This document shows, piece after piece, positions 29,668 to 63,576 of a DNA stretch of 64,000 nt. The translations under genes were made by a program, and so were the position numbers. Within the stretch, counting starts at the first letter, position 1. Each line of letters begins with the position of its first letter. Source of the DNA: Sphyrna mokarran (lineage: Eukaryota); assembly GCA_024679065.1 (NCBI GenBank), contig JAGIQG010000013.1, positions 12,028,001 to 12,092,000 of the forward strand. The letters run 5' to 3'. The notes below the pieces were generated by a model. The model searched no databases and was not told the DNA's origin. It saw only the letters and a list, made by a program, of their open reading frames with translations.

Positions 29668-31132
29668 AAAAATCTGTGGCCAGAGCTATCAATACCCAAG
29701 GTGGGTATGTTGGCCAGAGTTTCAATGTTCAAACATGGATTCCTCCTCAGGCAATTAGCATTTGGCCATGGTTGCATTTTCCTACACGATAGTCAGTGCA
29801 TCTCACGAGAGATTTGTGATACAAGAAGCTTTTGAAACAGAGGGAAAGAAAAAGGGGGTGCTGTTTAAATGCAGACCTTGCTTTCCATCTTCATATTGGT
29901 CATCCACTGTCCCTGACTGTTGCGACTTACACAGGAAGAACAGTGTATCGATTTTAATCAGGCAATTGAGGTTGGCCTGCTAGAATATGAACTCCCTGAT
30001 TAAGGGCCCAATTGATCCAGTTGACCCAAAAGTTCAATCAGGGTGCCCCATGCTTTGTACTTAAACGGAAGTGTCAATTCCTCTGGCACTCCGGATGTAG
30101 ACTGCATACTGCGAGCACTCTGTATAGTGCTGTTGGACCTTGTAAATGAAAGAATTTTGGTGAAGGAATTTCCACCTCTGAGGACTAATTACAAACAGTT
30201 ACTTGGGAAAGGCAATGTATTGCAGCAAAAACAGACAGCTTCAGCAGAATGAAGATTGTAACAGGATTTTAAAAAAGTTGATGAAGTAGTTTCAAAACCT
30301 CACCCTGGGCTTTTTATCAAATAATAATAATGCACACAATCATGTCAGATCCCATGACGATTGTTAGCATCTGGTTATGCTTATAGTTCTAGGAATTAAA
30401 AGAGCAACATGTACTCCTTTCCCTCTGAGAAGTCCCTCCAAAGACATGCTGCATTTCTCAAAAAAGCCCTTACAACTGTAAAGGCAGCAATATGACTACT
30501 GTGTGCATGCAGAAGAAAATAGGAATGAGAAAATGGCCTGAGATCCCTGAGCTTGCTTTTTGTGTCATATGTCAGCAGTGTTGTTAATTAAGGGGTGTGG
30601 TGGATGATTATTATGGGCTAGGCTTGGCATATCTCCAAGTGCCTATGGCTGAATACAATGCAATATTTTTCTTGTGGGTTTCCCCAGGAGATTTAATGAT
30701 TGTTGCAACAATCACTCTTTGTACTGTATCCTAAATATATTAAAAAAACAGACTGCAGATTGTCTTAAATTTAAGTACAAAAGGCTTGTCTTTACTTCAA
30801 AGTCTGTCTTATGCGCTTTTATTTCAGGGCACTATCTTCACTGAAAATGTGCTCCTAAGTGCGGAAACAAAAAACGATACACAATTATTTTACGGTCAGG
30901 TTTGTTTGAGTGGGACAATAACACTGCTTGAAATTTCCTGACTGTTGTTACTGGTTCAAAAAGACAATCTGAACATGCTGTAAGTTCCCTTATCAGCTGA
31001 GATATTAGTCATGCAAGTTCCAGCAGCCCTCAAAAGTTTGAAATCAAGTTCATTTAATGAGTTGTCATCACAGAACTCCTATGGTGCAGAAGGAGGCCAT
31101 TCAGCCCATCAAGTCCACAAGTAGGATATTGA

Positions 31133-33650: not shown

Positions 33651-33901
33651 CATCATTGTAAAAGTCCTTCAAAGCTCTGAATTTCTTCATGGAGAATTCC
33701 AGTTTCTTTTCTTCAAGGATTTAGCTACCAGTTCTTAACTGATAGCAGGTCCCCAATCCACATGAGTTCCACCACAATCGCACATTTCTGCAGGGCCTCC
33801 TTCACTTTGTTCTTGACAGTCTTCGCAGTGTAGATCCACCGTAATCAACTTTATCTGAACCCTCAGCCTTGTGCACTGCATGGCTGGCAGTGGTCAACTA
33901 A

Positions 33902-34238
33902 GGGCGGTATGGTGGTACAGTAGTTAGCATTAGTCAGAGCGCCAGGGATCCAGGTTTGATTCCTGGCTTGGGTCGCTGTCTGTGTGGAGTCTACATGTTC
34001 TCCTCGTGTCTGGGTGGGTTTCCTCTGAGTGCTTAGTTTCCTCCCAGGCTCCAAAGATATGTGGGTTAGGCACATTGGTCATGCTAAATTGCCCCTTGGT
34101 GTCCCAGAATGTGTAAGTTAGAGCAACTAGCAGGGTACATATGTGGGGTTACAGGGATAGTGCTTGGGTGAGATTGTGGTAAGTGCAGACTCGATGGGCC
34201 TAATAGCTTCCTTCTGCACTGTAATGTTTCTGATTCTG
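33902..34238 (+). mobile_element. V-SINE HE1-like, CR1-type tail, full length
   Basis: gggcggtatggtggtacagtagttagca...ggtttgattcc...gtgcagactcgatgggcc. Confidence 0.9.
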
Positions 34239-34584
34239 ACAAATTCCTTTAAAAATAAGTGAAGCAGTGGCAGTAACCTTACCTTCCTTCTCTTCTGCCC
34301 CAGATCCAGCCTTCAATTTCCCAACTTTTCAGCTGCAGCCCTCTCCAACACCCTCCTGTAAAATCTGATCCCATGGGGTTTCTGAGGCACCAGTCTTAAC
34401 TGAAGGAACTGTCAGAGTGGCTTTCTGACAGGTACAGAGAGAACCAAAAAGAAAGAAAAGCTACTTTACTGTGTCGCTGCCAACCTGTTGTCAAAAATGA
34501 AAGTATTGGTAGGAGTGACTATTGCACAGTCTATGTAGATACCAAGTCCCATTTCTATCCTGAACATCAAGCTAACTTATTTTT

Positions 34585-36945: not shown

Positions 36946-37693
36946 TCTTGGGGTTTCAATGTAATCTAGTCTGAAGCCACAGATGATTTCTTTCTCCTAG
37001 TTTCTAATATATGGAGAGCCAGAAGTTCTTGTTGGCTGTATACATTTTCAACCACTTTGTTTAAATAAATCAGGTCTGCCTACCCTATTGAGTTACCCCT
37101 GTAGTGCTGAGCATCTCTGTAAATTTGAATGTGGAACTTAAGATTGGTTTGCTTCAGGTGCCCAGAATGTGCTCAAGTGATTAATTGTGGTGCTGTGGTC
37201 TCTGTTTACGTGGCTGTGAGCCGATAGGAAACAAATGAGGACAGAGATCTTCTTAACTAGTTGCGATGTCTTTACAGACACATCTTTCATGGGCCTCAAA
37301 GAAGTACAGAGCAAGAAGTGGTTGCCTGACATGTCGAACACCTCCTTCAAAAGTCATTCCCCTAGAGAAAACATCAATAAAAGTCCCCATTATAAACTGA
37401 ATTCATCTCATGTCCATCATTCTCCAAACATAGATTAAAGAGTGAAATGTGAGACAGCAGAGGCACTGGCAAAGCCACAGTATTAATTTCTTTCCCTCGT
37501 GGGAAAAGGCAGGTGTTTGTCAACCTTGGGCTAAGAAACACTTCAAAAAAGATTTCCGGAAGTGAATTTTAATTTACAGAAAGTCAGGAATTAGAGCTAT
37601 TTTGAGGCCAGTGTCTTAACCATGAAACTCAGATTACAAGAATAATTTAAAGGTAAATATAAAAACAATATCATTTCTTAAATGCGTAGTTCA

Positions 37694-37980
37694 TTTTATT
37701 TATTTATTATTGTCACAAGTAGGCTTATATTAACACTGAAATGACGTTACTGCAAAAATCCCCTAGATGCTCCACTCTGGCGCCTGTTTGGGTACACTGA
37801 GGGAGAATTTGGCATGGCCAATGTAACCAACCAGCATGTCTTTCGGACTGTGAGGAAACTGGAATGCCCAGAGGAAACCCAGGTAGACATGGGGAGAATG
37901 TGCAGACTCTGCACGGATAATAATCCAAGCCAGGAATTGAACCTGTGTCCCTGGTGCTGTGAGGCAGCAGAGCTAATTAT
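37694..37980 (-). mobile_element. V-SINE, Rex1-type tail
   Basis: tttatttatttattattgtcacaagtaggc...ctgagggagaattt...ggaattgaacc. Confidence 0.9.
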
Positions 37981-38323
37981 TGTATATGGTTCAGAAAACT
38001 CAATCATTACTTCCTGATTTAACCTGTGCTCTCTCGTAAGATTCTTATTTCCAGTTTTCATGGTGTTTTATACTGTGGGTCTTGGACTTTCATTGGTTTA
38101 TGAATAATACAAAAACACTTGTCGCAGTTACTTTTAACCACGTGGAAATCTGGCTCCAATGCATTCCCCTCTATCCATTGTGAATCTACTGCACAATATT
38201 AAATATTGTGGATATATTCAGTACTGGTGCTGATCTGCAACAGTGTCATTACCCTCCCTGTCTCACCTGAAGCTATACTTGCCCCTGCGTCACATTATTC
38301 ACTGATTTGATTTAACCTAGCCT

Positions 38324-38647
38324 TGGGTGGTACAGTGACACAGTGGTCAGCACTGCTGCCTCACAGCGCCAGGGACTGGGATTCAATTCTGGCCTCGGGT
38401 CACTGTCTGTGTGGAGTTTGCATTTTTTCATCGTGCCTATGTGAGTTTCCTCTGGGTGCTCCAGTTTCTTCCCACGGTCTAAAAATGTGTGAGTGAGGTT
38501 GATTAATCATATTAAATTGATGCTTTGTGACAGGGGATTAGCAGGTAAATGTGTGAGGTTATGGGAATAAGAATTAGGTAAGATTGTGGTCAGTGCAGAC
38601 TCGATGGACCAAATGGCCTCCTTTTGCACTGGAGGGATTCATGATTC
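38324..38647 (+). mobile_element. V-SINE HE1-like, CR1-type tail, full length
   Basis: gtgacacagtggtcagcactgctgcctcacagcgccaggg...gcactggagggattcatgattc. Confidence 0.9.
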
Positions 38648-38977
38648 AAAGAGATCAACGCCAAAATCTGAAGAACAACATGATGAACCATTTATTTACT
38701 CTGATTCAAAAAAATGTTCGTGTTCTTACAGTCAAACGTCCTGATACCAAAAACCACTTTGAAAAATGATCCTTTCAAAATAAACTCTGATCTTGCCCTC
38801 CTGCTTCCGAGTGGATCAGATGGTGTTATACTACATGCCATCTGGTAGGAAGGGTTTAGTTGGAAACAATAATATTAAATGAAGCTGTGCCGGACATGCC
38901 ATCTGATGTTACACGTACCACAGTAGGTGGTCTCAAGACAATGCTAAGATTGTATCATTGTTGTTTTTTTTAAAGCA

Positions 38978-42172: not shown

Positions 42173-44241
42173 CTTCATCATTATGCAGTGCTTCAAAAGG
42201 CTAGTCATGGCACATATCAATTCCAGCCTCCCAGACTATCTGGATCCATTACAGTTTGCCTACCACTACAACAGGTCCACAGAAAACATCATCTACCTGG
42301 CCTTGCACTTAACGCTTGAACACCTAGATAACAAGGACACCGACGTCAGACTCCCATTTATTGACTACAGCTCAGCCTTCAACATCATTATTCCCATGAA
42401 ACTCATCTTCAATCTCCGTGGCTTGGGCCTCGGCATCCCTCTGTGACTGGATCCTGAACTTCCTAACTCAAAAACCACAATCGGTAAGCATATGCAACAA
42501 CACTTCCTCCACGATTATCATCAACACTGGTGCCCCTCATGGCTGTGTTCTCAGTGCCCTACTATATTCCTTATGACTATGTGGCCAAATTCCCCTCCAA
42601 TCTGATTTTCAAGTTTGTTGAAGGCACCACTGTAGTGGATCGGATCTCAAACAATGATGAGACAGAGTACAGGAATAAGATAGAGAATCTGGTGAACTGG
42701 TGCAGCAACAATAATCTCTCAAAAGACAAAGAACAAAACAGCACGGGAAACAGGCCCTTCAGCCCAACGAGCCCGTGCTGCCACCCCAATGTTCCCACCT
42801 CTACCTGTGATCCCTGTCTATGTTTATAGATCTATGAATTAAAAACCAAATTTGAGACAATTTAGGGAGAATTTGTTTTCCCAATTAGCCTAACAGCACA
42901 TCTTTGGGATGTGGGAGGAAACCAGAGCACCCGGAGAAAATCCACACAAGCATGGGGAGAATACACAAACTCCCACAGACACAGGCCCAAATCCATGTAT
43001 CTGCACAGCACAGCGATAGTCACTGAGCTGTCGTGTTGCCCATCAAATGGTCCAGGTCAAGCGTACACCAATAACGTGAAGCACTAGGATACTCTTGAAA
43101 AATCCAACTCAGACCTTCCATACGAAGCAGCATCCTGGTAAACCTCCTCTGCACTCTCTCCAGAGTCTCCACATCCTTCCGGTAGTAATGCGAACAGAAC
43201 TGGACGCAGTATTCCAAATGAGGTCTAACTAACGTTTTATACAACTGCAACATTAAAGGCCAGCTCTTGCACTCTATACTCCTTCCTATAAAGGCTAGCA
43301 TACCATATGCTTTCTTCACAATCTTCCCCACCTGCTCTGCCACCTTCAGAGAGTTGTGCACCTGCACCCCCAGGTCCCTCTGCATTTCTATACTCTTAAT
43401 AGGTCTACCCTTTATCATATACCTCCCCCTACATTCTTTCTCCCGAAATGCATCACTCCGCATTTATCAGGATTGAATTCCATCTGCCATCTATCTGCCC
43501 AAGCTACCAGCCTATCTATGTCCTGCTGCATCGCCTGACAATGCTCCTCACTATCCGCAAGTCCAGCCAGAATGAAAGATTGTAAAGGAGAACATGCCCC
43601 TGCCTCCATCAACAGGGACGAAGTAGAAAGGGTTGAGAGCTTCAAGATTTTTGATGTCCAACTCACCAGCCACTGTCCTGGTTCTCCCCATACTGTACTA
43701 TAGTGAAGAAAGTCCAGCAATGCCTCCACTTTCTCAGAAGACTGAGGAAATTTGGCATGTCAGCCACGACTCTCGCCAACTTTGCAGATGCATCATTCTT
43801 TCCGGTTCTATCACAGTTTGGTATGGCTCCTGCTCTGCCCAAGACAGCAAAGAAATACAAAAGGTCGTGAATGTAGCCCACTCCATTACGCAAACCAGCT
43901 CCCATCCATTAACTGTCTACACTTCGGAAAAGCAGGCAGCATAATCAAGGATCCCACGCACACGGATATTCTCTCTTCCACCTTCCTCCATCGGGAAAAA
44001 TACAAAAGTCTGAGGTCACCTACCAATTGACTCAAGAACACCTTCTTCTCTGCTGCTGTGAGACAGTTGAATGGACTTACTTTGCATTAAGTTGATCTTT
44101 GTCTACACCCTAACAATGACTGTCACATTACTCTCTTGTTTCCTTCTCTATGAACAGCATGCTTTGCCCGTATAACACGCAAGAAACAATATTTTTCACT
44201 GTATGCGAATACATGTGACAATAATAAATCAAACCAAATCA
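42173..44241 (+). mobile_element. Rex1/Babar LINE RT (parts 42173-42722 and 43573-44241)
   Basis: MQCFKRLV...[15 protein letters not shown]...[13 protein letters not shown] (Rex1 RT); tail tacatgtgacaataataaatcaaa. Confidence 0.9.
42724..43572 (-). mobile_element. CR1 LINE with V-SINE-derived 3' UTR, copy 1 (internally deleted)
   Basis: RT RDLGVQVH...LYKTLVRPHLEYCVQF joined at ~43107 to a 3' UTR shared with 58872-59254. Confidence 0.85.
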
Positions 44242-51832: not shown

Positions 51833-52327
51833 GTCATTACAAGAAAGATGTGGAAGCTATTGAAAGGGTGCAGAGGAGATTTACTAGGATGTTGTCTGGA
51901 TTGGATGGCATGTCTCATGAGGATAGGTTGAGGGAGCTCGGTCTTTTCTCCTTGGAGAGACGAAGGATGAGAGGTGACCTGATAGAGATTAATAAGATGT
52001 TGAGAAGTATATATCACGTGGATTCTCAGAGGCTATTTCCCAGGGCTGAAATGGTCAGTATGAGAGGACACAGGTTTAAGGTGCTGGAGAGTAACTACAG
52101 AGGAGATGTCAAGGGTAAGATTTTCACTCAGAGGGTGGTGGGTGAGTGGAATCGGCTGCCGTCAGTGGTGGTGGGGTCTTTTAAGAGACTTCTGAATGAG
52201 AACATAGGATTTAATGGGATTGAGGGTTATAGATAGGTCTAGTAGTAGGGATATGATCAGCGCAACTTGTGGGCCGAAGGGCCTGTTTGTGCTGTGGTTT
52301 TCTATGTTCTATATTCTATGTTCTATG
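51833..52327 (+). mobile_element. Young CR1 3' fragment
   Basis: HYKKDVEAIERVQRRFTRML...FTQRVVGEWNRLP; (gttctat)n tail; same subfamily as 6161-6380. Confidence 0.95.
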
Positions 52328-58149: not shown

Positions 58150-58774
58150 GGTCAGCACTGGAGTGTTGCTTTGGGCTGCATTAGAGAGCTTAAAATAGAC
58201 TTTGGAGATTGAGGGAATTTGAGGACTGAGTTAAGGGTTAACTTTTATCTGAAGTCAAGTCTTTCTTGAAATTAGGAATTATTTCAGATTTGCTGTTTAG
58301 GTTGGAAGAAGCCCGATTCACTTTAAAACAAGGCTTATAAAGGCACTGCTTGCAGCTGCAACAATTTAATTATATAATTGCTTTAAACAGGTTTACAAGA
58401 TGCCTGATTGAGAGATCATAAAAAGCAGGTTGCTTTCAGTACTGCTTTTTTCTGTACAAGAGAATTGCTTTGGACTGCAGTAGAGTGCTTCAGGTAGAGT
58501 TTGGTGACTGAGGGAATTTGATGAAAAGGGGTCCAATTGATCCTTTCATTTTCTACCTTTCTTCAGAAAGAAGACCTGGAAGGACCTAGTGACCTATTGT
58601 CCTTAATGTTCTCTGAACTAGAAGAAGTAAAAAGTGAAGGGAGTAATTTAAGGATAAGTTATGCCAGGGCAGCACAGCCATATGAAATGCTCCTCCTGTG
58701 TGATGTGGGAACTCAGGGACACTTCCAGTGCCCAGATTGATCACGTGTGCTGGAAGTGTCTTCAGCTGCAGCTA
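58150..58774 (+). mobile_element. CR1 5' UTR and ORF1 zinc-finger start
   Basis: 58661-58774 encodes MPGQHSHMKCSSCVMWELRDTSSAQIDHVCWKCLQLQL (CxxC...CxxC); ~57-bp direct repeat at 58166 and 58465. Confidence 0.75.
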
Positions 58775-59965
58775 TTTATTTTATTTATTAGTCACAAGTA
58801 GGCTTATATTAACATTGCAATGAAATTACTGTGAAAATCCCCGAGTTGCCACACTCCGGCGCCTGTTCGGGAACAAAGAACAACACAGCACAGGAAACAG
58901 GCCCTTTGACCCAATGAGCCCATGCTGCCATTTTAAAGTTCCCACTTCCACCCACCACCCTTGTCTATGTTTATGGAAATCTGCATTGGAACCAAATTGG
59001 GGAGACAATTTAGGGGCAATTTGTTTTGCTAATCAGTTTAAGAGCACATCTTTGGGGTGTGGGAGGAAACGGGAGCACCCGAAGAAAACCCACGTAAGCA
59101 CAGGGAGAATGCGCAAACTCCCAGATACCAGCCCAAATCCCTGTATCTGCACAGCAACAGTGGTAGTCACTGAGCTGTTGTGTTGGCCATCAACTGGTAC
59201 AGTTTAAGCATACACTAGTGATGTGAAGCAATAGGCTACTCTCGAAAAATCCAAGAGCAGCCCTCTCATGACCCATCGTGTGTATGCCCCTTGTTGGACA
59301 ATAAGGTGGACTGAAGAACCTGTAGGATAAGAGAAATACATAATAACATGCACAATTTATGCAATTCCCAGGAACATCCCAAGGCTCATGATCCCTATTT
59401 AAATCAGTCTACTATATCCTTCCATCCCTATTCCGCTCATGTGCCTATCTAAGTATCTCTTAAATAACTCAGCGTGCCTGCCTCCACCACCTTACCTGGA
59501 AGTGTAAGTGCATTCCATACCTCCACCACCTCCCTCTAACATCCAAATTATACCTTGCCCCCCTCACCCTAAGCCCGTGGCCCCTCGTAATATTTGATTC
59601 CAACCTAGGAAAAAGCTTACCACTGTTTATTCTATCTATACCCTTCATAATCTTGTACACCTCTATTAGATCTTCTCTCAGTCTCCATCTTTCTAAAGAA
59701 AACAGCCCCAATTTGCCTAACCTTTCCTCGTAACCCAGTCCTTCCATACCAGGCAGCATCTTGGTAAACCTCCTCTGCGCTCTTTCCAGGGTCTCCATGT
59801 CCTTCCGGTAGTAAGACAACCAGACTGGACACAGTACACTGAGGGAGAATTTTGTATGGCCAATGCATCTAACCAGCACGTCTTTTAGACTGAGAAGAAA
59901 CTGGAGCACCCAAAGGAAACCCAGACAAACATAGGGAAAATGTGTAAACTCCACATGGACAGTGG
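58775..59965 (-). mobile_element. V-SINE, Rex1-type tail, split (58775-58871 and 59836-59965)
   Basis: cctgttcggg | gtacactgagggagaatt rejoins the SINE consensus seen in intact copies. Confidence 0.85.
58872..59835 (-). mobile_element. CR1 LINE with V-SINE-derived 3' UTR, copy 2
   Basis: ORF2 YYRKDMETLERAQRRF...TRGHGL...FKRYLDRHM ends ~59400, followed by a ~530-bp 3' UTR containing a V-SINE body (~59010-59190). Confidence 0.85.
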
Positions 59966-60300
59966 AGTTTACTGCATATTTTTGAGCAGGGAGCCATTGG
60001 ATTCCAATCCAGGCAGAATCCAGGCTGAATTCCCTGACCTACAAATCCATCAGGACCCTCCTGCCTTTCCTGCCGGATCAGTTCCCACAGCATTGCCCAG
60101 GCTTTCAGATACTGGCATTGTGCCAGGTAAATTGGGTCAAGTACATACCAACAGAGAGCCACCAGAATCTCCTGAATTAAAAAGGAATGTTGTAAGTGGG
60201 GGGCTCCTTGTTTTAGTTGGCAGGTAGTCCAGCTGTTGCTCTGTGCCAGGGGCCATGTTTGTATGACAGTGTGATACACCCGTGCTTATACCATTGCTCA

Positions 60301-60585
60301 GAGAATCGCAGAATCCTGTAGTGAAGGAGGAAGCCATTCGACCCATCGAGTCTGCATCGACAACAATCTTATCCAGGTTCTATCCCTATAACCACATACA
60401 TTCACCCTAGCTAGTGCCTCTAACACGAAGGGGTAATTTAGCATGGCTAATCCACCTGACCTGCACATCTTTGGACACTAAGGGGCAATTAGCATGACCA
60501 ACCTGCCTGACCTGCACATCTTTGGAGGAAACCAGAGCACCTGAAGGAAACCCACACAGACACAAAGAGAACGTGCAAACTCCTA
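60301..60585 (-). mobile_element. V-SINE HE1-like, CR1-type tail, with internal ~52-bp duplication
   Basis: aggggtaatttagcatgg...cctgacctgcacatctttgg occurs twice. Confidence 0.85.
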
Positions 60586-61080: not shown

Positions 61081-62004
61081 TTAATCCTTCAGGCTCATTG
61101 GGTAAAGAATGAGAAAAAACAGAAAATAAGAACATTTGTTCATATATGAAACTTTCCAGTCTTATAGTTAGAAATTTGATCTTTGAAATTCCAGCTTGCC
61201 TCTGGCATGGAACCAGTGCAATCTGGGACAGGGGTTGGGGAGCGACTTGATCAGAAATCATTTTCCACTGAGTTTTTATCCCTTTCTGAGATTGCAATTA
61301 TTCTTCTCAGAACAGCCTCTCCCCTCCTCACCAGGTCACAGAATTGGGGCAAAGGGTAGGTGTTGGCAGAGAGATAAGTGGTCTCTGTCCAGTGTATGGC
61401 CAAATGAACATGTATGGTATGTATATGGAGTGTAAATACAGTTCACCCTGTCATCTGCAATATCTGCTTCCTCCCTTGGACAGACAGGCTGCTGTTATAG
61501 AAAGCAGCAAGGGGACATTTGGGAATTAAAAGTGCAACTTTCGGTCACTCTAGTTCACCTGCTTCCACACCCCCCTCCCCTCCAACTACTGAGGTATCTT
61601 CGGACTTCCAATTACATCTGAAAGTATTGCTCGCAAATTCCCATGCCACACAACATGCATATGCTCATGGCATCATGCATGACATGGGCAACTGTCCCTT
61701 TTTCTGCAAGTTTTTGCTTCCTGTATGAGGTTATTTCAGAGGAAGACATGTGCATGCAGATCCTGTCCTTTTGCACATCTGGTGCTGTGGTTGCAGCAAT
61801 TCATTGGTCCTTAGTGGGCCTAATCCACCAGTGCGTCTCCCCCCCCCCACCCCCATTTTAGGTTTAGCCCCATCAGATCTCTGCGCTCTTCCAATTCTGG
61901 CCTTTAGTACCTTCCAATTTTCTTTTTTTTCATTACTGGGGCTGTGGTTTCAGTTGCCTACAGCCCATAGAATTCCCTCTCCACCTCTACACTGTCCTCT
62001 ATGT

Positions 62005-62316
62005 TTGTTTATTAATCAGTTACAAATAGGCTTATCTTAACACTGCAATGAAGTTACTGTGAAAATCCCCGTGTTGCCACACTCTGACACCTGTTTGGAC
62101 ACACTGAGGGAGAATCTAGCATGGCCAAAGCACTTTACACACACATCTTTGGATTGTGAGAGGAAACCTGAGCATCTGGAAGAAACCCACGCAGACACAA
62201 GGAGAACGTGCAGACTCCACACAGATAATGACCCAAGTTGGGAATCGAACTTGGGTTCTTGGCACTCTGAGACCCTGTGCCACTGAGACTCTGAGATCAC
62301 TGTGCCACTGTGCTGC
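62005..62316 (-). mobile_element. V-SINE, Rex1-type tail, inside an L2-like 3' relic (~61860-62440)
   Basis: gttactgtgaaaatcccc...ctgagggagaatctagcatgg...gggaatcgaac. Confidence 0.9.
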
Positions 62317-63576
62317 TCTGTTGCTCCTCAAACCTGCTTCTTTGAGCAAAGGTTCGGTTACCTGTGTGATTACCTCTTTTTATTTGATTACGCTCTTGGA
62401 CTTGGGACATTTTACTATGTTAAAAGCACTATATAAATTGACCATGACTTACAGTGCATCTATTTCCACACCCCTATGTTGGGTTGAAGCTGCCAACAGA
62501 AGTACAACCCTGTGCCTGCTGTATGCATATCTCTAGTGGCTTACAGTGAGTACATCTTACTGCCTGGCAACAGCACTGAATCCCTTAAAAACACAAAGTG
62601 TCATACTAGGGAAAGCTTTGATTCAGAAAATGCCTCCATGGTTGGCTTTCTACAGATATCTAGTTACGTGCTGTACAGAAATCCATCAGCAAGCTTCAGA
62701 ATTTGTGCCAAGTTACAGGTGGGGATTAATGCTGACTGGGGGTAATAGTGTAAAGTTGATAATACTGATACTACATTCCTTTTCATTCATTTTTTTATGG
62801 AAGGAAAGTCAGGAGAGAAGTCCAATGGGTGGCTGATCCAATGTGCATTTTACCGCTATCGTAAGTGGAGGGTGGGATTGCTGCACAATTGTGCAGAAGG
62901 ATGATGGAAAAGAACTGAATAGCCTCCCTCTTCTGTACTTAATTTTGAGATCCCTGCAATCTGACGGTAATACTGTGCAGGAGGAAAAGCAAAAATGTTC
63001 CATCCGCCATTACCGACAACCTTCCACCCTCGAACGGGACAAAGGAACGATTTGGGTGATTTTCCTTTTTGACAATTCCAAGCCTTTAATCAATTCACTT
63101 TCTATTGAATCCTTGAAAGGATCCAGAGCTTTCTGCTGGAGAAAACTTCCAGCTGATGATTGATGCTGCCTGTCTGAAAGAACCAGTCGTGTCCAGCGAG
63201 CGAGCAGCCTGAACACATTTGGAAAGTCCTGGGGACTCGTTTAGCATTTCCTGCAAACTCTGAACCATGAGTGATGACACCTGGTTGTGCATCTCTTATT
63301 TCTTAACTACTGTATGTGTAATTCCTCCCAGTCTATATTTTATTTTGCTGTGCTAACTGAACCATATGTTTCAGGTGAAAAGTTGCACATATTTTATTCT
63401 GGTATTTTTGGGGGCAAAATGGCAGAAAATAGTGTGTACGAATCTCTAACATATCATGTAATGTTGTAAACCTAACTCTTAGCATGCTGCTAATAGAAAA
63501 CAACGGACCTAGCTTTTAGTGCACTATTGTTGGAATAAGGCCCTAACTCTTAGCATACCTCTGCTAGAATATAACA

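Follow-up and report, generated by a model that had tools for sequence, protein, structure and literature searches.

V-SINEs are defined by a V-domain of ~80 nt that follows a tRNA-derived head (PMC4824008), and V-domains are described from cnidarians to vertebrates. In sharks and rays, the V-SINE HE1 is partnered with HER1, a CR1-type LINE (PMC4824008, PMC3747384). Ideas on the role of conserved SINE cores, as laid out in parts of PMC5499810 and PMC6887750, include SINE-LINE interaction, recombination sites and a service to the host. The composite element described here, in which a SINE head and V-domain are located in the 3' UTR of a CR1-type LINE, offers a way to probe why V and similar cores have been conserved, which is still an open question. 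Since this LINE carries V in cis, apart from Pol III transcription and mobilisation in trans, an effect of V becomes measurable.

Judged by analogy, the closest precedent of the composite is the spread of a headless V-SINE by the MITE MER6. MER6/MER6A is a mammalian Tc1/Mariner MITE that holds an Ac1-like V-SINE (PMC6887750, in part). As in the composite, a nearly full V-SINE lies inside another transposon, the head function is lost and V was spread by the carrier. MER6, in contrast, is a non-coding DNA element with V outside the transposition RNA, whereas the carrier of the composite is a LINE and its SINE piece is reverse-transcribed. HE1 and HER1 share the tRNA head, the V-domain and the CR1-type tail with the composite. 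HE1, however, borrows a LINE tail according to the available descriptions; in the composite, head and V come after ORF2, no B box is left and the tail resembles LINE tails more than those of free SINEs. In the pectinoid MESC SINEs and LP-SINEs, LINE sequence is likewise fused upstream of a tRNA head and a switch to Pol II has been proposed (PMC4758252, in part), but these elements are non-coding and their LINE part is ~70 nt of a 5' UTR, while the upstream part of the composite is a coding LINE 3' end. For the LINE Ingi-3_AC, a gain of SINE-related sequence through recombination has been proposed; that proposal was made as a possibility only and differs in concerning a Ceph-SINE/RTE-like segment of ~70 nt in the 5' UTR with no tRNA head (PMC5786205). 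Persaeus, an internally deleted CR1/Zenon derivative, is comparable to the second copy of the composite (copy B, see below) as an internally deleted CR1-group element, but it has kept both the 5' and 3' ends of the LINE, and the available text describes no SINE part (PMC6740152).

Apparently new in the composite are the covarying hairpin of the head and the carrier, which as a LINE belongs to the class with which SINEs are partnered. The full-text literature searched contained no account of a LINE whose 3' UTR includes V-SINE sequence; Repbase and Dfam lie outside this scope, and a consensus of the composite may already be deposited without comment. Four motifs had 0 matches in the available part of the supplement of PMC13343379, which holds CR1-group consensuses from a study including several sharks and rays; these consensuses end at 400 letters, leaving 3' UTRs invisible.

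The composite was found on the minus strand of a 64,000-nt stretch of Sphyrna mokarran DNA (contig JAGIQG010000013.1, positions 12,028,001 to 12,092,000), hereafter called the window, whose numbering is used throughout. Two copies, A and B, are present (Table 1). In copy A, a CR1-type ORF2 end is followed by a linker, a tRNA-derived head, a V-domain, a post-V segment and a CR1 tail; we take the LINE to be of the CR1 class, and the name V-domain is likewise assumed. ORF2 is open for 96 codons (59834-59547), followed by a deletion and a frameshift, and ends with a stop codon at 59401-59399. In these respects the initial annotation was confirmed: it had placed the ORF2 end at ~59400, followed by ~200 bp of unique UTR, a clear V-domain and a terminal CR1 tail, and indeed the linker matches only copy B within the window, the V-domain aligns with the 14 free SINE copies of the window and the tail is a CR1-type stem-loop.

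Table 1. Features of the two composite copies and of the SINE interrupted by copy A (window positions).
Feature	Position	Strand	Remarks
Copy A, whole composite	59835-58872	minus	
Copy A, ORF2 3' end	59399..59835	minus	CR1-type, 5'-truncated
Copy A, linker	59191..59398	minus	~210 nt
Copy A, tRNA-derived SINE head	59129..59190	minus	A-box position 59177-59167; hairpin 59178-59151
Copy A, V-domain	59012..59122	minus	core 59122-59044; 3' part 59043-59012
Copy A, post-V segment	58930..59011	minus	~80 nt; common to copy B
Copy A, tail	58872..58929	minus	CR1 LINE-type; stem-loop containing an internal loop, followed by short simple repeats
Host free V-SINE, 5' part	59836..59964	minus	copy A inserted at the V-domain 3' edge
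Host free V-SINE, 3' part	58772..58871	minus	resumes at 58871
Copy B, second composite	about 43570-42722	minus	
Copy B, ORF2 fragment	43107..43570	minus	5' end approximate
Copy B, linker end, head, V-domain, post-V, tail	42722..43107	minus	

The junction between copy A and its host shows short microhomology and no target duplication, and removal of copy A restores the host SINE. Contigs of uninterrupted SINE copies contain the empty-site joint (58839-58870 to 59833-59835) in 4/4 public runs. The insertion (59836/59835) is located approximately where two free SINE subtypes diverge into different tails. The SINE homology inside the composite also stops close to the 3' edge of the V-domain, and this edge may be a favoured junction. 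A free SINE at 60420-60540 carries a local duplication at the V-domain 3' end.

Copy B is 85% identical to copy A over the 106 nt of ORF2 they have in common and 81% identical over the last 385 nt. It carries an internal deletion of 478 nt (corresponding to 59732-59255 of copy A) with a 2-nt microhomology and retains only the last 64 nt of the linker. With these 478 nt missing, the junction of the ORF2 stop with the linker is seen once in the window. The host of copy B is an opposite-strand reverse-transcriptase relic, presumably Rex1-like, and its frame continues on both sides of the insertion; as the hosts differ, A and B are separate insertions. Of the proposal that the same architecture recurs at 42724-43107, the different flanks and the similarity over the last 385 nt stood, while the 478 nt absent from copy B limit the match. 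Splicing was rejected as the origin of this deletion, as the junction, inspected by eye, shows the 2-nt microhomology and no GT-AG ends. The linker of copy A contains a pyrimidine run ending in CAG (59340-59310, minus strand) that resembles a splice acceptor and is unused by the deletion. The host relic of copy B (42400-42722 and 43570-44100, plus strand) seems to miss ~15 codons at the insertion, and more copies of the reverse-transcriptase relic are located at ~6.8, 20, 45, 52.8, 55.6 and 57.3 kb.

To characterize the family beyond the window, contigs of public sequencing runs were aligned to 58400-59899 at 80% likeness, a level at which ORF2 contigs may include other CR1 subfamilies. Four of the 24 listed runs, among which no RNA run appeared, were covered (X1, X2, X12 and X16), with X1 holding 0.75 of the sampled words and perhaps representing the source sample. 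In X1, every 50-nt bin from the tail to the ORF2 end has 4,318-149,092x the depth of the single-copy flank, and still at least 139x after division by 31 for overlapping words; the summed depth does not equal copy number, and some X1 differences are uncounted. Linker bins reach 113-14,209x flank depth in X2 and 126-12,935x in X12. The post-V bin has 29x and 13x flank depth in X2 and X12, respectively, and the bin after the stop codon 113x and 126x; the post-V and post-stop parts vary or differ in the organisms of these two runs. The post-V segment is the part that changes fastest within the composite, and both flanks of the head and V block seem to turn over faster than the block itself. Among individual bins, 58950-58999 and 59350-59399 are deep in X1 and thin in X2 and X12.

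Bridging contigs connect ORF2 with the linker in X1 (59345-59495 and 59250-59426), the linker with the head in X2 (59156-59291) and the V-domain with the tail in X1 (58879-59043). They differ from copy A by 18-26 letters and therefore come from other loci. Three further X2 and X12 contigs pass the stop codon by ~35 nt, and each of five sites in the linker and at the head edge is found in at least 114-127 X1 contigs. At the 3' end, 782, 548 and 377 contigs continue into unrelated flanks, some of them perhaps from other CR1 families. Within the overlap of the two copies, the majority letter is present in copy B at 14/14 sites where the X1 depth mostly disagrees with copy A (34 of 259 differences were examined), and at 59248 the letter shared by A and B is dominant in X1 but not in X2 and X12. 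No contig of the four runs covers the whole element. In X16 (organism H), the flank and the host SINE are covered and head, linker and post-V segment are without cover; this pattern, to which no evidential weight is given, would be in keeping with a clade-restricted family.

The composite architecture is real and family-wide, with neighbouring parts linked in three organisms. Two outcomes had been named in advance as speaking against it, namely a linker that is not consistently joined to both ORF2 and V-domain in other copies and a SINE part with its own target site duplications in each copy. The joints of the linker with ORF2 and with the head recur in contigs from other copies; in A and B alike the sequence 5' of the SINE part is the same, and flanking duplications do not exceed 5 nt. 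The core of the initial annotation, a LINE family with V-SINE sequence in its 3' UTR that has lost the B box and transposes as one unit, is supported by these results.

The head of the composite is found in none of the 14 free SINE copies of the window. An 18-nt deletion just 3' of 59128, common to A and B, removes the B box: the best match has 4 mismatches in the composite and 0-2 in 14/14 free copies, scored against box consensus motifs that we presume to be correct. The best A-box match has 2 mismatches, an identical pair of changes in A and B, compared with 0-3 in the free copies. The absence of a recognisable B box was correctly noted at the outset; of the reported A-box decay, the two changes shared by both copies were verified, but the mismatch count is within the range of the free copies. 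The composite accordingly combines one V-SINE hallmark, a V-domain of ~80 nt after a tRNA-derived head, with the loss of two others: the internal Pol III promoter of A and B boxes is broken by the B-box deletion, and the unit does not start at the head, as the same linker is located upstream in A, in B and in a contig from another organism.

The heads of A and B fold alike. In the head hairpin, 11/12 pairs are Watson-Crick after 9 changes in 24 positions, two of the 12 pairs having been added after the data were seen. Random placement of the changes leaves 4.7 pairs on average and at least 11 in 3-5/100,000 trials (346-399 when G-U is counted); when only the 10 pairs present in the free consensus are scored, the values are 301/5,000 and, with two double changes, 129/5,000. 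Four double changes keep the hairpin: two replace G-C by A-T and two turn mismatches into pairs. Two of these affect the conserved letters at either end of the A box. Free SINEs with 8-9 changes keep 2-6 pairs, whereas A and B keep 10. The pattern hints at a head that was kept as a hairpin rather than simply decayed, and at constraint on the RNA, although a different donor subfamily or gene conversion might also have produced it. The clearest sign of constraint in the element lies in this tRNA-derived head, which had originally been taken for decay.

For the V-domain, changes common to A and B were counted against the consensus of the 14 free SINE copies; the source state of the composite obtained in this way rests on two copies. 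The V core has 6/77 shared changes compared with 19/55 in the head (Fisher p = 0.0002) and the V 3' part has 8/28. Free SINE copies, in contrast, decay evenly (0.22 in the head, 0.18 in the V core and 0.23 in the V 3' part). A and B differ in the fold of their V core. An origin of the V-domain within the composite LINE was rejected, as V spans cnidarians to vertebrates and here follows a decayed tRNA head.

SINE homology ends at ~59012. Comparisons of the post-V segment with post-V segments of the free SINE subtypes of the window gave 0/12 tests below 87/1000 shuffles. A reading of the segment as CR1 pre-tail sequence was rejected, with 0/10 tests significant. The tails of A and B score 35.5-51.5 against five CR1 LINE tails and 11.5-33.5 against six free-SINE tail windows; if the SINE window at 31085 is left out because its boundaries lie too far 3', the SINE range becomes 14-33.5 and stays below all LINE scores. 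The tail hairpins of the composite (z -2.4 and -3.1) share their topology with the CR1 tail at 52258. Because the tail is LINE-like and the post-V segment is unmatched in free SINEs, the captured part can be stated as head and V-domain in a UTR with a LINE-type tail; neither the capture of an entire V-SINE nor a tail supplied by the SINE, both originally suggested, was borne out. Searches with Pfam gave 0 families for 5/5 proteins, including a 72-codon stop-free frame in the linker, and Rfam gave four matches on 58760-60010, all far under their gathering scores.

The ORF2 end is 60-84% identical to six unnamed or uninformatively named proteins. One of them (P0001) is uninterrupted over 218 aa and 82% identical to the frame of copy A, and the majority letters of X2 and X12 at 59411 and 59404 encode its last residues. 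Eight ORF2 sites split X1 from X2 and X12, and splitting sites are also found in the linker. At these ORF2 sites 5/8 changes are synonymous, compared with 22-31% expected (p 0.015-0.063) and with 2/6 at sites private to copy A (p = 0.30). Two hallmarks of CR1 elements are present, a 3' stem-loop with short simple repeats and 5'-truncated interspersed copies without target duplication (copy A, with copy B in a different host). The composite LINE family is likely autonomous, the synonymous lean at the ORF2 sites and the matching end of P0001 being hints in this direction; an intact ORF2 joined to the composite UTR was not seen in contigs of the four runs. A protein search of genome and viral contigs detected no related loci, and pattern scans of metagenome, genome and viral contigs gave no match. 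The one match of a second metagenome pattern (L001) was rejected as a chance 24-nt match in bacterial-looking DNA.

The preferred origin starts with a source CR1 LINE that would have gained ~460 nt of extra 3' UTR once, the gained block consisting of the V-SINE head and V-domain with unrelated sequence on each side. An RNA polymerase II transcript of the LINE would read through the block and end in the CR1-type stem-loop, which the ORF2 protein would use for target-primed reverse transcription; as the transcript carries the block to the CR1 tail, each new copy would have the SINE piece. The B box was presumably deleted in the source lineage together with the function of the internal Pol III promoter, so that the SINE piece would be unable to be transcribed or to move alone. 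The family would have amplified widely and would have gone on changing beyond the split of related species. The captured block was probably not inert, with the tRNA head preserved in hairpin form and the V core least changed, and the likeliest cause would be that the RNA structure of the UTR matters for stability, export or folding of the tail. We hold this scenario of a one-time capture, loss of the Pol III promoter, transposition by the CR1 tail and some selection on UTR structure with moderate confidence.

A stronger form, in which an autonomous CR1 domesticated its parasite, compensatory changes remodelled the head into a hairpin once the Pol III promoter was destroyed, and hairpin and V core act in cis to make the LINE RNA more stable or more active in retrotransposition, appears unlikely at present and is put forward as a tentative proposal. 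The main rival, held to be somewhat unlikely, is the reading that the same capture left the SINE piece as a neutral passenger, with the differences of the head owed to another, perhaps extinct, V-SINE subfamily or the hairpin completed by templated repair between its arms, and a V core refreshed by conversion or template switching with the highly abundant free SINEs. It draws on the exchange of heads and tails among V-SINE families that share a core (PMC4824008, PMC5499810) and on MER6, which spread a V-SINE with no benefit demonstrated in the available text (PMC6887750). Copy B, moreover, dispenses with most of the linker, though perhaps through loss after insertion, and the folding energy of the head is ordinary (880/5,000). 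Against a neutral passenger, double changes at the first and last A-box letters (of a consensus that we presume) would be unlikely in a donor with a working Pol III promoter, and none of the free copies in the window offers the composite head.

Two capture routes remain, insertion into the UTR, or read-through into a second tail further downstream while the first one decayed; the latter is compatible with either functional view. By this second route, which the initial annotation implied and which is possible but rather doubtful, a CR1 transcript read through a weak end into an entire same-sense V-SINE, or into a SINE piece plus CR1 tail stub, and the downstream tail took over while the original one decayed. 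At other CR1 ends of the window the UTR is ~80 nt long, and the first ~15 nt of the linker resemble the start of such an ordinary short UTR. Segment 59385-59323, which may represent the decayed original tail, aligns in place with short CR1 tails slightly above shuffles (anchored, 20/2,000 shuffles summed over 6 targets), but one of four linker controls is nearly equal (z 2.06 compared with 2.36) and the unanchored search of the linker for an old CR1 tail was negative in 6/6. The distance from the V end to the tail is similar to that of free SINEs with CR1-type tails, and tail-only CR1 stubs are present in the window; the LINE-like tail and the unmatched post-V segment speak against the route, as does the observation that the UTR start after the stop codon and the terminal tail could together make up a single short UTR (1/4 tests at 17/1000). 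That the composite is instead a non-autonomous chimeric RNA with partial ORF2, mobilised in trans by a short-UTR CR1 in the manner of SVA, SIDE or LP-SINEs, is improbable. Neither window copy reaches past the last ~0.8 kb of ORF2, copy B is internally deleted and no long contigs were seen in the four runs, but other CR1 copies of the window are also mostly short and 5'-truncated, the lineage-specific ORF2 changes lean towards synonymous and P0001 has an open C-terminal frame with a matching end. A chance nest of LINE end and SINE that was duplicated once, or an assembly artefact, is refuted and retains next to no probability. The 64 kb contain only two copies and are crowded with SINEs and LINEs, but hosts, 5' ends and tails of A and B differ, and high depth and bridging contigs from other loci were found in three organisms.

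If the domestication proposal is true, V would have an activity that is independent of Pol III and portable, which would bear on its conservation across animals. Many composite copies will be annotated as a LINE plus a separate SINE, distorting SINE counts and ages. The composite family may also yield clade markers.

The free SINEs of the window, which we take to be HE1-like, have one head and V-domain and two unrelated 3' tails, CR1-like or an AATAAA-rich run (examples of the tail types are located at 37629-38035 and 61935-62345 versus 33889-34266 and 38290-38694). The two tail types suggest two partner LINEs. Adjoining the tail of the SINE that hosts copy A, a low-copy repeat is located at 58630-58770; X2, X12 and X16 contain contigs from other loci that match it.
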